This document shows, piece after piece, positions 3,491-50,797 of a stretch of 64,000 bases of DNA. The translations under genes and the position numbers were made by a program. Position 1 is the stretch's first letter; each line of letters starts with the position of its first letter. This stretch comes from Escherichia phage vB_EcoP_CU10EC, in the sequence record PQ435408.1; one strand, given 5' to 3'. The notes beneath the pieces were generated by a model that did not search any database, was not told the origin of the DNA, and saw nothing but the letters and a program-made list of their open reading frames with translations.

Positions 3491-4018
3491 TTGGAGCTGA
3501 CCCATTCACTCAGGCATACGCCTATATAAAATCCTTACCAGATTATAAATCTGCCGAGGAAATTTAATAAAAGCCCCGTAAGGGGCTTTTCTTCTACCCC
3601 ACTCTACTATAAATAAGTATTATTTGGAGCTGACCCATTCACTCAGGCATACGCCTATATAAAATCCTTACCAGATTATAAATCTGCCGAGGAAATTTAA
3701 GAAAAGCCCCGTAAGGGGCTTTTCTTCTACCCCACTCTACTATAAATAAGTATTATCTTTTGGTCAGACTCTTCTTTGGAGCTGACCCATTCACTCAGGC
3801 ATACGCCTATATAAAATCCTTACCAGATTATAAATCTGCCGAGGAAATTGAAGAAAAGCCCCGTAAGGGGCTTTTCTTCTACCCCACTCTACTATAAATA
3901 AGTATTATCTTTTGGTCAGACTCTTCTGATACGTCCCGAATAAGGGGCTTTTCTTCTACCCCACTCTACTATAAATAAGTATTATCTTTTGGTCAGACTC
4001 TTCTGATACGTCCCGAAT
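3491..4018. repeat. Intergenic tandem array: three units of about 133-152 bp plus a 77-bp partial unit, each carrying a terminator-like hairpin
   Basis: Unit begins ttggagctgacccattcactcaggcatacgcc; hairpin aagccccgtaaggggctt recurs at 3571, 3704, 3856, with a degenerate copy at about 3941; offsets 133, 152, 77. Confidence 0.85.
3569..3595 (+). terminator. Intrinsic terminator (copy 1 of 3-4 in the array)
   Basis: Stem agcccc / ggggct with loop gtaa, followed by tttcttct; copies also at about 3702-3728 and 3854-3880. Confidence 0.6.
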
Positions 4019-4051
4019 GGGTGTCATTAAAGAAACATTAAGGACTTTCTC

Positions 4052-4384
4052 ATGAGCGATGAATCGACTTCGGTTCTTCTTGCCCGATTGGAGGAAAGAC
4101 TGGAAACACTGTTTAAGAACCAAGAAAAGGAAGAACGCTCCAAAGACAAACTGGAGCAAACTTTATCTGGTTTAAGGGTGTCTGTTCAGCAAATGGAAGG
4201 CAGACTTAAAAACGTAGAGGATAGCCTTGCTAAGTCTGAACCTACTATCGAAGAGTTTATTACCATAAAGCATAAAGTTGCTGGTGCTGGAATTTTTGGT
4301 AAGTGGGTATGGGCTATAGCAGGTGCAATCATTGGTGTATTGGCTGCTGCAAGACGGGAGATATTCGCATGGTTCGCAGGTTAA
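4052..4384 (+). CDS. Membrane protein with N-terminal coiled coil and C-terminal transmembrane helix; possible holin or antiholin partner
   Basis: 110 aa; hydrophobic C-terminus GAGIFGKWVWAIAGAIIGVLAAA; RBS aagga upstream; first gene of the lysis cluster. Confidence 0.4.
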   Translation: MSDESTSVLLARLEERLETLFKNQEKEERSKDKLEQTLSGLRVSVQQMEGRLKNVEDSLAKSEPTIEEFITIKHKVAGAGIFGKWVWAIAGAIIGVLAAARREIFAWFAG

Positions 4385-4629
4385 AAAGAAAGATAGAGCT
4401 AGTACCTAATTGGAAGAAGTCCTGGAAATGGGCATCTGTTCAGATTAGTACGTTTGGTTTAATTCTGTTTTCTGCTGTAGATATCATTCAACCAATGGTG
4501 ACGGGACTACCTCGTCACATCCTGGAAGATATTCCTCATGGTTCCAATATTGCAATCGCACTGTTTGCCTTAAACATCATGGGTAGATTGATACGATTCC
4601 GTCCAAAGGAAGATTCACATGAAAGCTAA
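4369..4629 (+). CDS. Holin-like protein with two predicted transmembrane helices
   Basis: ATG at 4369 with GGGAG RBS 8 nt upstream; two hydrophobic segments (STFGLILFSAV, IAIALFALNIM) and charged C-terminus; ORF track lists a longer 4303..4629 version. Confidence 0.5.
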   Translation: MVRRLKRKIELVPNWKKSWKWASVQISTFGLILFSAVDIIQPMVTGLPRHILEDIPHGSNIAIALFALNIMGRLIRFRPKEDSHES

Positions 4630-4873
4630 ACAGAAACTTGCTGCAAAAGGTGGTGCAGTGGGAGGGGTTATCGCTGCTATTCTGGGGGCAGTGTTTTATA
4701 TGGAAGGAGGGTATATAAATAATCCTCGTGACCCAGGTGGTGAAACTAATCATGGTATTACCCAAGCTGTAGCTAAATCCCATAAAGAAGTTTTGCTGCA
4801 AAAGGTGGTGCAGTGGGAGGGGTTATCGCTGCTATTCTGGGGGCAGTGTTTTATATGGAAGGAGGGTATGTAA
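4619..4873 (+). CDS. N-terminal fragment of signal-anchor GH108-type endolysin, frameshifted by a 155-bp tandem duplication
   Basis: RBS aaggaag before ATG 4619; hydrophobic GGAVGGVIAAILGAVFY anchor; EGGYxNNPRDPGGETNHGIT motif typical of GH108 muramidases; frame lost at the duplication junction (4793). Confidence 0.6.
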   Translation: MKAKQKLAAKGGAVGGVIAAILGAVFYMEGGYINNPRDPGGETNHGITQAVAKSHKEVLLQKVVQWEGLSLLFWGQCFIWKEGM

Positions 4874-4947
4874 ATAATCCTCGTGACCCAGGTGGTGAAA
4901 CTAATCATGGTATTACCCAAGCTGTAGCTAAATCCCATAAAGAAGTT
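4638..4947. repeat. Two copies of a 155-bp unit inside the endolysin gene (1 mismatch)
   Basis: 4638-4792 matches 4793-4947 except atataaat versus atgtaaat; 155 is not a multiple of 3. Confidence 0.9.
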
Positions 4948-48584: not shown

Positions 48585-49334
48585 ACTACTACCCATATAG
48601 CCTTGATACCATCTATCAGACATATCATACGAACCAGGTTCAAATGACATACCCAGTGTATTCAGTAGAGTGTAATCACCCTGCTGAATACTGTTACCCT
48701 CTTCTGTTCTAACGAGTTTAGGAATACTAAGTTCAGCTTTAATCTCACCATTAAACACAATAGACTTAATGTAATGTACAAAGGTATTTACATCATGCTT
48801 GCCTAACTGGAATTTAACTTCCAGACCAGATTCTTCGGTAGGAATATTAGTAACAATAGGAACAATGCCTGGCTTACCATCATTCTCAATCGCAGCCTTA
48901 GCTACGTTATATACAGACATCTTTCCTTGGTTCCATGAAGTAACCTGGAAGCTATCTGTATAAGCGAATGGGGATTTACATCCCAGACCGAAGCCACCAG
49001 TAACACTACTGTTGGACTTCTTAGTAGATGCACCATAGACACCATAAATGGAACCAATGAGTTCATCTGGAATACCGCTACCGAAGTCTCGGAAGGTAAT
49101 AAAGTTGTCTGTATCAATAGTGATACGAATAGGAGTATCAGTCTTACCTGCTTCAATATGAGCATCCCAACTGTTACAGATAGTCTCACGGACTACTGCC
49201 AGAGTAGGATTGTTATACAAGGAAGTACTTAATACATGAAAGAATGCCGGGTCATCAGAGATGCCAAAGGCAATTGTTTCTTTGCCACCCAGTGTCGCTG
49301 AGGTAGCTACTTCATTGGTATCTGCAACTAACAT
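48402..49334 (-). CDS. rIIA-like protein, N-terminal GHKL-type ATPase domain
   Basis: 310 aa; GHKL motifs NSWDAH (N box), RDFGSGIP (G1), GGFGLGCKS (G2); ends by frameshift inside duplicate copy. Confidence 0.55.
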   Translation of the reverse strand: MLVADTNEVATSATLGGKETIAFGISDDPAFFHVLSTSLYNNPTLAVVRETICNSWDAHIEAGKTDTPIRITIDTDNFITFRDFGSGIPDELIGSIYGVYGASTKKSNSSVTGGFGLGCKSPFAYTDSFQVTSWNQGKMSVYNVAKAAIENDGKPGIVPIVTNIPTEESGLEVKFQLGKHDVNTFVHYIKSIVFNGEIKAELSIPKLVRTEEGNSIQQGDYTLLNTLGMSFEPGSYDMSDRWYQGYMGSSNIYVRYGNVMYPIVSSPASEEAVGLILNFMNIIGAFNLVVQAAPDTLAIAPRTYTFATVT

Positions 49335-49377
49335 TTATTTACTCTCCAGATTAAATGTTGCTTCTTGGTTATAACTA

Positions 49378-49602
49378 TTAAGAATCTAATGCTGATTTAC
49401 AGGCTTCAAAAATCTCTTTACGCAATTCCCGTTCTTTTTCCGGTTCCTCATGAGGACTGTAACCAAAAGGACTGTTTTGCATAAAACTAGCCAGAATTAG
49501 TAAATCTTCCTCAGATAGACCATCAATAGTGATGGAGTATTGGTTTTTGCTTTTTACTGTAGCGTTAGCCATTTCGTTTCTCCGCCATTGCTTGTAGTAC
49601 AA
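49378..49602 (-). CDS. Hypothetical small protein
   Basis: 74-aa ORF. Confidence 0.4.
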   Translation of the reverse strand: MYYKQWRRNEMANATVKSKNQYSITIDGLSEEDLLILASFMQNSPFGYSPHEEPEKERELRKEIFEACKSALDS

Positions 49603-49927
49603 ATACTACAGTGCCTGAAATTTGTTCATCAGTTGGTTCAACTAATTGACCATTTTCATCATACATTTCTTTCAGAAGTGCATTCAGTTCAGACATACCA
49701 GCCAGTACCATTTCCTTACTTGGTTCCAGCCATAATTTACGTTCTTCTGCTAGTGCAGCAATGCACATACATAGAGAAGCGATGTTAGCTGGACAAGCAA
49801 GAATATCACCTGTAACTGCAATCTCGCTAAGTGGAATAGCCTTGCCGGTTTTACTATGAATAACTTCAGGATTGATCATGGATTTGCTCCAGGTTATGGG
49901 CAGGAATAGGGAAGCATGGATAGTCAC
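49565..49927 (-). CDS. Hypothetical protein
   Basis: 120-aa ORF. Confidence 0.4.
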   Translation of the reverse strand: MTIHASLFLPITWSKSMINPEVIHSKTGKAIPLSEIAVTGDILACPANIASLCMCIAALAEERKLWLEPSKEMVLAGMSELNALLKEMYDENGQLVEPTDEQISGTVVFVLQAMAEKRNG

Positions 49928-50084
49928 CGGTAGGATCCAGTGTTACAGATACATGCAATGTATTTGTCATCTGAGTTAACATTAGAGCAGCATTGAAATC
50001 ATCCTGAATACAGGCATATACAATGTCACCCTTCTCACCCTCACACATTACGGGTGTGTCTTTGATGCGGTATTTAGCAGGCAT
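49866..50084 (-). CDS. Hypothetical small protein; its 5' end lies in copy 1 of the downstream repeat array
   Basis: 72-aa ORF; GGAGGG RBS-like sequence close to the ATG. Confidence 0.35.
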   Translation of the reverse strand: MPAKYRIKDTPVMCEGEKGDIVYACIQDDFNAALMLTQMTNTLHVSVTLDPTGDYPCFPIPAHNLEQIHDQS

Positions 50085-50797
50085 ATGCCCTCCCGAAAGA
50101 GTTAATTAAAACCAAAAAAAGACCTCCCGGAGGAGGTCTTATGTTTACTTACTATTTTCTTCAATGAAGCGTCTCATACGTTCCTTTGCTTCATCATGTT
50201 CACGAATTGCTTCGTAGTCGCGAGCAATATAATAAAGACACCACAAACCAATCTCACTTACGAAGACATTACGGGTGTGTCTTTGATGCGGTATTTAGCA
50301 GGCATATGCCCTCCCGAAAGAGTTAATTAAAACCAAAAAAAGAACTCCCGGAGGAGGTCTTATGTTTACTTACTATTTTCTTCAATGAAGCGTCTCATAC
50401 GTTCCTTTGTTTCATCATGTTCACGAATTGCTTCGTAGTCGCGAGCAATATAATAAAGACACCACAAACCAATCTCACTTACGAAGACCAAAAAAAGACC
50501 TCCCGGAGGAGGTCTTATGTTTACTTACTATTTTCTTCAATGAAGCGTCTCATACGTTCCTTTGGTTCATCATGTTCACGAATTGCTTCGTAGTCGCGAG
50601 CAATATAATAAAGACACCACAAACCAATCTCACTTACGAAGATAAACATAAGACCTCCTCCGGGAGGTCTTATGTTTACTTACTATTTTCTTCAATGAAG
50701 CGTCTCATACGTTCCTTTGCTTCATCATGTTCACGAATTGCTTCGTAGTCGCGAGCAATATAATAAAGACACCACAAACCAATCTCACTTACGAAGA
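50045..50797. repeat. Tandem array of four copies (offsets 221, 155, 155 bp) spanning a gene 5' end, a terminator hairpin and the 3' end of the next gene
   Basis: acattacgggtgtgtctttgatgcgg at 50045 and 50266; hairpin gacctcccggaggaggtc at about 50121, 50342 (1 mismatch), 50497; copy 4 at about 50652 has the loop inverted (gacctcctccgggaggtc). Confidence 0.85.
50648..50675 (-). terminator. Intrinsic terminator after the 50676..50915 gene (the array carries three more copies)
   Basis: 9-bp stem aagacctcc / ggaggtctt with loop tccg; minus-strand U-run. Confidence 0.55.

Follow-up and report, generated by a model that had tools for sequence, protein, structure and literature searches.

What could place near-identical tandem copies, with recurring periods, at five loci of a single phage genome? 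The question is raised by a stretch of 64,000 nucleotides from Escherichia phage vB_EcoP_CU10EC (record PQ435408.1), here called the window. An initial annotation had suspected an assembly or stitching artefact, while leaving some room for a slippage-prone process. We put at about 0.96 the probability that the copies are the untrimmed concatenation of contigs from a k = 77 de Bruijn graph of a polymorphic phage population. Four observations carry this reading: the anatomy of the repeated units, a fit that is found at k = 77 only, the single copy present in relatives and the repair of genes when the copies are collapsed.

Anatomy of the tandem copies

Repeats were located with Tandem Repeats Finder and a repeat finder, and the copies were then compared base by base. 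Near-identical tandem copies do stand at five loci of the window, as initially described. Their periods comprise, besides the 155 and 77 bp already listed, three values that had been left out: 133, 152 and 221 bp. The first locus combines a period of 133 bp (3490-3756), one of 152 bp (3623-3927) and exact copies with a period of 77 bp (3864-4018). A pair with a period of 155 bp lies at 4638-4947, another at 29526-29835, after which come exact copies with a period of 77 bp (29759-29912), and yet another at 48275-48584. The last locus has copies with a period of 221 bp at 50045-50488 and three copies with a period of 155 bp at 50332-50797. Also missed at first was an exact tandem repeat of 1,734 bp at 1-3468, to which we return below. 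At offsets of 77, 133, 152, 155 and 221 nt, the longest self-match in five related contigs does not exceed 9 nt, and the tandem copies far exceed chance expectation.

The simple 155-bp pairs (starting at 4638, 29526 and 48275) have exactly one mismatch each, in keeping with the earlier estimate of about one base per pair, and in all three it falls at unit position 78, the unit consisting of 77 exact nucleotides, one SNP and 77 further exact nucleotides. With 155 positions available in a unit, three single mismatches would all hit the middle one by chance with a probability of about 3e-7. Now, 155 is 2k+1 at k = 77, and de Bruijn graphs with that k have SNP-bubble edges of just this length. The derived periods fit the same rule, which strengthens the artefact reading: 221 is 155+66, or 77+1+65+1+77, as expected of two SNPs 66 nt apart, and 152 is 155-3, with two SNPs 3 nt apart (sites 3565 and 3568) and three haplotypes among the copies. 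The 77-nt repeats (3864/3941 and 29759/29836) are exact and directly adjoin 155-nt units.

Might real duplications have the same look? One could imagine one replication process, prone to slippage or template switching, that repeatedly makes copies of about 155 and 77 bp and in this way knocks out the genes for the endolysin, the rIIA-like and the gp49-like protein. The copies do stand in the sequence as given, and template switching is plausible at two of the loci, which have terminator hairpins. However, no known biological process centres the sole difference in every unit between 77-nt flanks, and neither slippage nor a deliberate gene inactivation, both of which had been entertained, would put the only mismatch at the exact centre of every unit or yield units of 152 or 221 nt that match graph arithmetic. 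Moreover, positions 50189, 50410 and 50565 represent one site with three alleles (C, T and G) among the copies, a pattern that does not come from duplication, but that a population graph can give. Genuine tandem duplications of phages, for example by slippage between short repeats, are head-to-tail and disrupt reading frames, as here; yet their endpoints are set by microhomology, their lengths are arbitrary and their copies are initially identical. They have no central SNP, no three alleles and no lengths tied to one integer k, all of which the copies of the window have. An origin by real duplication is accordingly exceedingly improbable.

A single k-mer length accounts for the inserted segments

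De Bruijn graphs were built from the inferred haplotypes, and their unitigs were compared with the inserted segments. At k = 77 the inserted segments were exact unitigs, in sequence and in position, in six cases out of six, the simulated unitigs beginning at exactly 3624, 50267 and 50488. None of the six was reproduced at k = 21, 33, 55, 75, 76, 78, 79, 99 or 127. A single k thus accounts for the simulated segments, and neighbouring values fail. By comparison, units of 152 or 221 nt equal to k = 77 unitigs are not known from any biological process. For reads of about 150 nt, the default k values of SPAdes, one candidate program, are 21, 33, 55 and 77.

The course of events was very probably the following. 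The source would be a short-read de Bruijn-graph assembly with a final k of 77, made from a phage stock or sample in which an N4-like Gamaleyavirus population was polymorphic. Every SNP left unresolved would make a bubble, both arms of which would measure 77+1+77 = 155 nt; two linked SNPs separated by d nt would give arms of 155+d, and unlinked ones 155-d. Where a contig broke at a bubble, its neighbours or a leftover arm would share 155 nt (differing at the SNP) or 77 nt (exactly). Pasting such contigs end to end would then create apparent tandem duplications and frameshifts, and the window would be a pseudo-molecule in which contigs and small graph edges were laid in genome order with their overlaps left untrimmed. 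We infer assembly software together with an ordering-and-concatenation step. On this reading the copies are alternative SNP versions and the ends of overlapping contigs, pasted in series; they are no feature of the phage, and the second copies would be absent from real molecules.

Each element of this scheme has a known counterpart. Bubbles in assemblers of the Velvet, SPAdes or MEGAHIT type have arms of 2k+1 with a central variant, as is the case here at k = 77; adjacent edges have k nucleotides in common, and edges of 2k+1±d arise from SNPs that are close together or have several alleles, again as seen here. Such bubbles are normally popped, or one arm is reported, whereas here both or all arms are written serially into one sequence. 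The 77-nt repeats resemble the false direct terminal repeats of circular short-read contigs, which are untrimmed k-mer overlaps, although the latter sit at the ends of a circular contig and the overlaps seen here are internal, at contig-contig joins. Strain variation in phages is indeed known to create bubbles where assemblers choose one path or stop contigs, and the unresolved combining of variant contigs yields duplications (the Phables paper, PMC10104058). For phage genomes, the overlapping terminal repeats that assembly from k-mers leaves behind are recognised as artefacts (10.64898/2026.07.08.737226).

A variant of this explanation is that the assembler itself emitted one scaffold that jumps between bubble arms, by mis-scaffolding or an error of gap closing. 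It would yield the same k = 77 anatomy, and the segments follow the genome correctly in both order and orientation; the sequence alone cannot tell it from concatenation after assembly. The join at 3468/3469, with its missing genes, and the doubled 1,734-bp piece nevertheless resemble contigs laid along a reference. A scaffold error is hence possible but rather doubtful, and in any event it is a version of the same explanation, not a true rival.

Single copies in relatives and repair by collapse

The initial annotation had proposed a comparison with the closest N4-like genomes. From 3469 to 64000 the window is collinear with Gamaleyavirus AN24P2 at 88-98% identity, and the best match in the phage database reaches 98.3% identity. 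No recorded protein was identical to its portal protein. The giant virion RNA polymerase ORF has 3,487 aa; in relatives, vRNAP Pfam domains were found. By these similarities the underlying genome is that of a Gamaleyavirus (Schitoviridae, N4-like). Eight relatives were considered: Gamaleyavirus AN24P2, NAN33P5, IME11, and contigs of independent assemblies, three from Logan and two from ENA. The annotation of Klebsiella phage K57alpha1.2, being offset from its sequence, was left out. Wherever relatives cover a locus there is one copy: all eight have a single copy at the endolysin locus, AN24P2 is collinear and single-copy at the four loci that it covers (including the rIIA-like and 50-kb loci), and IME11 is single-copy at the gp49/66 locus. 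No comparable repeats were found in the five Logan and ENA contigs or in the sampled sequence of AN24P2 and NAN33P5. This also speaks against duplications in the phage itself. Some alleles of the window recur in independent relatives.

Removing 1,435 redundant nucleotides gives gap-free collinearity with the relatives; the collapsed sequence retains 3469-3623, 3909-3940, 4018-4792, 4948-29680, 29913-48429, 48585-50266 and everything from 50798 onwards. The collapsed sequence matches AN24P2 in one gap-free HSP of 12,351 nt across three junctions, and the other junctions are covered by single HSPs. The same operation repairs the three genes that had been described as frameshifted. Neither 155 nor 232 is divisible by 3. 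Their raw ORFs are indeed split, and the advice to distrust the reading frames was sound: collapse restores the endolysin, rIIA-like and gp49/66-family ORFs, with complete Pfam domains. With the simulation and the relatives, this repair supports the artefact that had been suspected; what had escaped notice was the k-mer rule, together with the joins 1734/1735 and 3468/3469.

In the endolysin gene (plus strand), the first allele of the bubble, with A at 4715, occupies 4638-4792, an exact unitig that forms the end of one contig; the second, redundant, with G at 4870, occupies 4793-4947 and starts the next contig. Deletion of 4793-4947 gives an endolysin of 211 aa with GH108 and PG_binding_3 domains, and one of the two alleles is that of AN24P2. 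The 32-mer at the junction was not found in viral_contigs or metagenome_contigs. Were the duplication real, a lytic phage would have lost its endolysin. In the gp49/66-family gene (minus strand), 29526-29680 is the first allele, 29681-29835 the second, as a stand-alone 155-nt bubble edge, and 29836-29912 the first 77 nt of the next contig, an overlap left untrimmed that repeats 29759-29835 exactly. Deletion of 29681-29912 gives a protein of 149 aa that matches PF13876 across the full profile, and the collapsed locus aligns with IME11 in a single HSP. In the rIIA-like gene (minus strand), the alleles lie at 48275-48429 and, redundant, at 48430-48584; their SNP is synonymous (ATC or ATT, both Ile), and one allele is the same as in AN24P2. 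Collapse replaces ORFs of 595 and 310 aa by one of 854 aa. All three genes are, as judged from these restored frames, presumably intact in the real phage.

The array at 50 kb

Segment 50046-50266, at a contig end, spans an intergenic terminator hairpin and carries haplotype C..C of a two-SNP bubble, the sites of which are 66 nt apart. It is followed by haplotype A..T, a 221-nt unitig (155+66) at 50267-50487, then by haplotype C..G, a 155-nt unitig at 50488-50642 in which the second site shows its third allele. At 50643-50797 the next contig starts, with a fold-back and then a repeat of the C allele. The first 29 nt of this contig (50643-50671) consist of the terminator hairpin in reverse complement together with ATGTTTA, and when fold-back molecules with two or more alleles are included in a k = 77 graph, one of its unitigs starts exactly at 50643. 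We considered a natural inversion of the hairpin loop for the flipped loop at 50659-50662, but the reverse complementation extends to the 7 nt that precede the stem, and for this reason the loop is attributed to a fold-back. In snap-back or fold-back chimeras, an artefact of library preparation or amplification, the 3′ end folds on the stem of a hairpin and is extended, which matches 50643-50671 and its junction with the forward sequence; in comparison with known chimeras, only 7 nt are visible here beyond the stem.

The start of the window

The window begins with two copies of an exact 1,734-bp unit, both on the plus strand (1-1734 and 1735-3468, with no mismatch), the second of which ends in a blunt join at 3468/3469. 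The unit comes from the interior of a gene for a beta-helix tailspike. In NAN33P5 it is present once (L005, 3814-5548), within an ORF of 900 aa at 3006-5708; in the window the ORF meets a stop 5 nt past the end of the second unit. At 3468/3469, conserved upstream sequence of the relatives is missing, position 3469 falls inside their 84-aa gene, and two genes are truncated by the join. One might think of a direct terminal repeat. This was rejected: the repeat is a piece from within the tailspike ORF, in single copy in NAN33P5, and what follows is a blunt join that truncates two genes. The 1,734-bp piece is probably a separate contig. It contains no SNP that would reveal a k-mer signature; the joins 1734/1735 and 3468/3469 are further joins of the same kind as the junctions between tandem copies.

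Blunt joins with missing sequence, at these same two places, are what might be expected of a manual or scripted stitching of overlapping PCR or Sanger amplicons, or of synthetic pieces, with no de Bruijn assembler involved. Such stitching would not produce, site after site, SNP-centred overlaps of exactly 77 and 155 nt, nor does it account for stand-alone k = 77 unitigs of 152, 155 and 221 nt or for the boundary of the fold-back unitig, and we hold it to be very unlikely.

Under the k = 77 concatenation, the first array (plus strand throughout) reads as follows. The segment 3469-3623 has 155 nt (2x77+1), carries haplotype T..T at sites 3565 and 3568 and is 100% identical to ENA contig L007; a central variant supposed to lie at 3546 was not seen in the window. 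An earlier idea, that the first copy ended 55 nt past the SNP at 3568 in relation to a k = 55 stage of a multi-k run, was superseded, the segment being exactly 155 nt long. Next comes a 152-nt unitig with the alternative haplotype T..G (3624-3775), which is predicted exactly from three haplotypes, and at k = 77 only. The third haplotype, G..G, occupies a segment of 165 nt (3776-3940), the first 152 nt of which are a k = 77 unitig under a model with four haplotypes. The start of this segment, 74 nt before the first SNP site, is not fully derived and requires a fourth haplotype or a break in coverage. An untrimmed 77-nt contig overlap (3941-4017) closes the array, repeating 3864-3940 exactly.

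Consequences for the record

The value of these observations is practical, not biological. As given, the record mis-annotates as frameshifted or split at least three genes (endolysin, rIIA-like and gp49/66-family), and it holds a falsely doubled and truncated tailspike as well as, in the part from 3469 to 64000, some 1.4 kb of superfluous sequence. Gene calls and tailspike-based inference of host range drawn from it would be wrong, and so would genome length, terminal-repeat calls and pseudogene counts. That 155-nt blocks centred on polymorphic sites were physically duplicated in packaged DNA, at several unrelated loci, has hardly any chance of being true; if it were, some hitherto undescribed mechanism would have to copy such blocks around polymorphic sites. 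The fingerprint, a tandem unit of 2k+1 with one central mismatch plus exact repeats of k nucleotides, is simple and checkable, and could serve to spot this defect elsewhere, among deposited phage genomes or genomes derived from metagenomes. Finally, the sequenced material is a mixed population with at least three haplotypes. Several of the variants lie in or adjoin two terminator hairpins.

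Tandem copies at five loci

Tandem copies were called with Tandem Repeats Finder and a repeat finder, and then compared base by base. Both callers report near-identical head-to-tail copies at all five loci named in the initial annotation: an intergenic region (3490-4018, periods 133, 152 and 77), the endolysin gene (4638-4947, period 155), a gp49/66-family gene (29526-29912, period 155, then 77), the rIIA-like gene (48275-48584, period 155) and an intergenic array (50045-50797, period 221, then 155 and 155). The list of loci stands, although it missed an exact repeat, 1-1734 being the same as 1735-3468. 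Base-by-base comparison of the three simple 155-nt pairs gives a single mismatch in each, at unit position 78, with exactly 77 identical nucleotides on either side. Both 77-nt repeats are free of differences, while the 221-nt pair displays identity runs of 77 (plus one by chance), 65 and 77 (plus one) nucleotides, its two mismatches standing 66 nt apart. Chance does not account for this arrangement, because self-matches at the offsets of the window's repeats do not exceed 9 nt in related contigs, and because the probability that all three of three mismatches are central is about 3e-7.

We consider these repeats to be an artefact of assembly and concatenation bearing a k=77 fingerprint (probability about 0.96). 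An assembly or stitching artefact was also the reading first preferred from the sequence alone, and it is supported by the graph reconstruction, by single copies in relatives and by the restoration of genes upon collapse.

Single copies in relatives and restored genes

The window comes from a Gamaleyavirus (Schitoviridae), an N4-like phage. Its segment 3469-64000 is collinear with phage AN24P2 (OZ035740.1, 7834-66218) at 88-98% identity, and wherever AN24P2 extends over a duplicated locus the alignment steps backwards: 4793 aligns back to reference position 8641, 48430 to 50527, and 50324, 50483 and 50650 each to about 52430. AN24P2 is therefore single copy there. The gp49/66 locus is single copy in phage IME11, as are the endolysin surroundings in NAN33P5 and IME11 and in five contigs assembled independently, three from Logan and two from ENA; all five of these contigs encode the 211-aa endolysin intact. 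No tandem repeats comparable to those of the window were found in AN24P2 or in the sampled part of NAN33P5. Comparison with the closest N4-like genomes, proposed earlier as a check, hence yields one copy at each locus that the relatives cover.

Removal of 4793-4947 restores a 211-aa endolysin with GH108 and PG_binding_3 domains, which is also its length in IME11 and five further relatives. Without 48430-48584, fragments of 595 and 310 aa become one rIIA-like protein of 854 aa, which has a GHKL ATPase domain, and the SNP in this gene is synonymous. Without 29681-29912, a 149-aa protein matches PF13876 (N4 gp49 / Sf6 gene 66) across the full profile. The warning that reading frames at these loci were not to be trusted was well founded: these three proteins are whole again only after collapse. 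Once all 1,435 redundant bases are removed, a single gap-free alignment of 12,351 nt to AN24P2 spans three former junctions, the remaining ones each lie in single alignments (with IME11 as the reference for the gp49/66 locus), and no self-match above 8 nt is left in the collapsed sequence. Genuine duplication would be the alternative, yet none of its marks that could be tested here was found in the window's repeats, which belong to no biological repeat family.

The region 28267-31972, a mosaic of accessory genes, has patchy similarity to AN24P2 and matches IME11 and phage 24-32N better; in a relative's annotation, the aligned stretch contains DUF2829 and an 'anti-CRISPR protein'.

Fit to a de Bruijn graph with k=77

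A length of 155 nt equals 2x77+1, which is how long each arm of a SNP bubble is when a de Bruijn graph has 77-mer nodes and 78-mer edges; this is well established for assemblers. For reads of about 150 nt, the SPAdes default is k = 21, 33, 55, 77. If L and R denote the 77-mers on either side, and x and y the two alleles, a contig upstream of an unresolved bubble would terminate in L-x-R; the second arm, L-y-R, would be left over as a 155-nt contig or open the next one, and a contig beginning at the closing node would open with R. Untrimmed serial joining would then give [LxR][LyR], the arrangement observed at the endolysin and rIIA loci, and [LxR][LyR][R], that of the gp49/66 locus.

Graphs were built from haplotypes inferred out of the window. 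Predicted k=77 unitigs were located exactly at 4793, 29681, 48430, 3624, 50267 and 50488. Three haplotypes (TT, TG and GG), which differ at two sites 3 nt apart, produce the one at 3624 (152 nt), and two linked SNPs spaced by 66 nt produce the one at 50267 (221 nt). The one at 50488 (155 nt) has G, a third allele, at the second site. Among ten values of k, only 77 reproduced the inserted segments as unitigs, six out of six; none of the six appeared at k = 21, 33, 55, 75, 76, 78, 79, 99 or 127. The segment 3469-3623 is also exactly 155 nt long, with its presumed central variant, at 3546, not visible within the window; 3776-3940 begins 74 nt before the first SNP and requires either a fourth haplotype or a break in coverage. 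At least 13 pieces thus make up the window: 1-1734, 1735-3468, 3469-3623, 3624-3775, 3776-3940, 3941-4792, 4793-29680, 29681-29835, 29836-48429, 48430-50266, 50267-50487, 50488-50642 and 50643 onward.

Graph assemblers are known to behave in this way when a phage population varies between strains. Faced with bubbles from strain variants, assemblers choose one path or end contigs, and variant contigs combined without resolution produce duplications (PMC10104058); untrimmed overlaps of k-mer length have also been described (10.64898/2026.07.08.737226).

The last segment opens with a terminator hairpin plus ATGTTTA, reverse-complemented (50643-50671), and a fold-back (snap-back) form of the intergenic terminator hairpin occupies this contig start (50643-50676). 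A graph with snap-back molecules bearing two alleles of a downstream SNP places a unitig start exactly at 50643. The fold-back may have arisen either as a library artefact or by template switching in vivo.

A mixed population

The differences between copies are genuine polymorphism. At both the endolysin and the rIIA SNP, one allele is that of AN24P2; an independent ENA contig matches the segment with the T..T haplotype at 100% identity; and positions 50189, 50410, 50565 and 50720 read C, T, G and C, three alleles of one site among four copies, which a duplication cannot account for and a population graph can. Closely related variants were thus mixed in the sequenced material; the three-allele site, together with an A/C variant of the terminator stem (50123/50344), indicates at least three co-existing haplotypes.

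At 3565/3568 (also 3698/3701 and 3850/3853), the three haplotypes TT, TG and GG lengthen a terminator stem stepwise until all 13 bp are paired perfectly, a pattern resembling quasi-palindrome correction. With G at the first site, the TAA that ends an 84-aa gene becomes GAA, adding 16 codons (15 past GAA) through the terminator. In the hairpin loop, 3578-3581, the window has GTAA where AN24P2 has the reverse complement, TTAC; the two relatives differ here by a natural inversion of the loop.

The window start

The tandem repeat of 1-1734 in 1735-3468 has no mismatch over 1,734 bp. Translated, the unit gives 578 aa belonging to a beta-helix-like tailspike, a fragment without a Pfam match, and it corresponds approximately to internal codons 270-848 of a 900-aa gene of NAN33P5, where it is single copy, as it is in Klebsiella phage K57alpha1.2; AN24P2 lacks it. 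Doubled, it stays in frame, creating a false ORF of 1,155 aa that stops 5 nt past the second copy. Position 3469 falls, out of frame, within the 84-aa gene of the relatives, and 30 nt upstream of the equivalent point, common to AN24P2, IME11 and the ENA contig L007, are missing from the window. From the sequence we infer two further contig joins, between 1734 and 1735 and between 3468 and 3469, with real sequence missing between the pieces; the second, blunt join would lack the tailspike C-terminus and the 5' portion of that 84-aa gene, and possibly a second tailspike gene. Both joins fall within the hypervariable tailspike region, a place at which a mixed population would fragment an assembly. 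Since the identical copies carry no SNP, no k-mer signature is readable. The consequence is practical, and the biological interest low: neither the reading frames at the five loci nor the tailspike region with which the window opens should be used as given.

The deposited annotation of the Klebsiella phage (OY979416.1, vB_Kpl_K57alpha1.2) is apparently shifted relative to its sequence: Dda-like helicase / nucleotide pyrophosphohydrolase is the label on the part that aligns with the window's tailspike fragment, RIIA/RIIB lysis inhibitor that on the part aligning with the endolysin region, and all features are flagged pseudo or partial.
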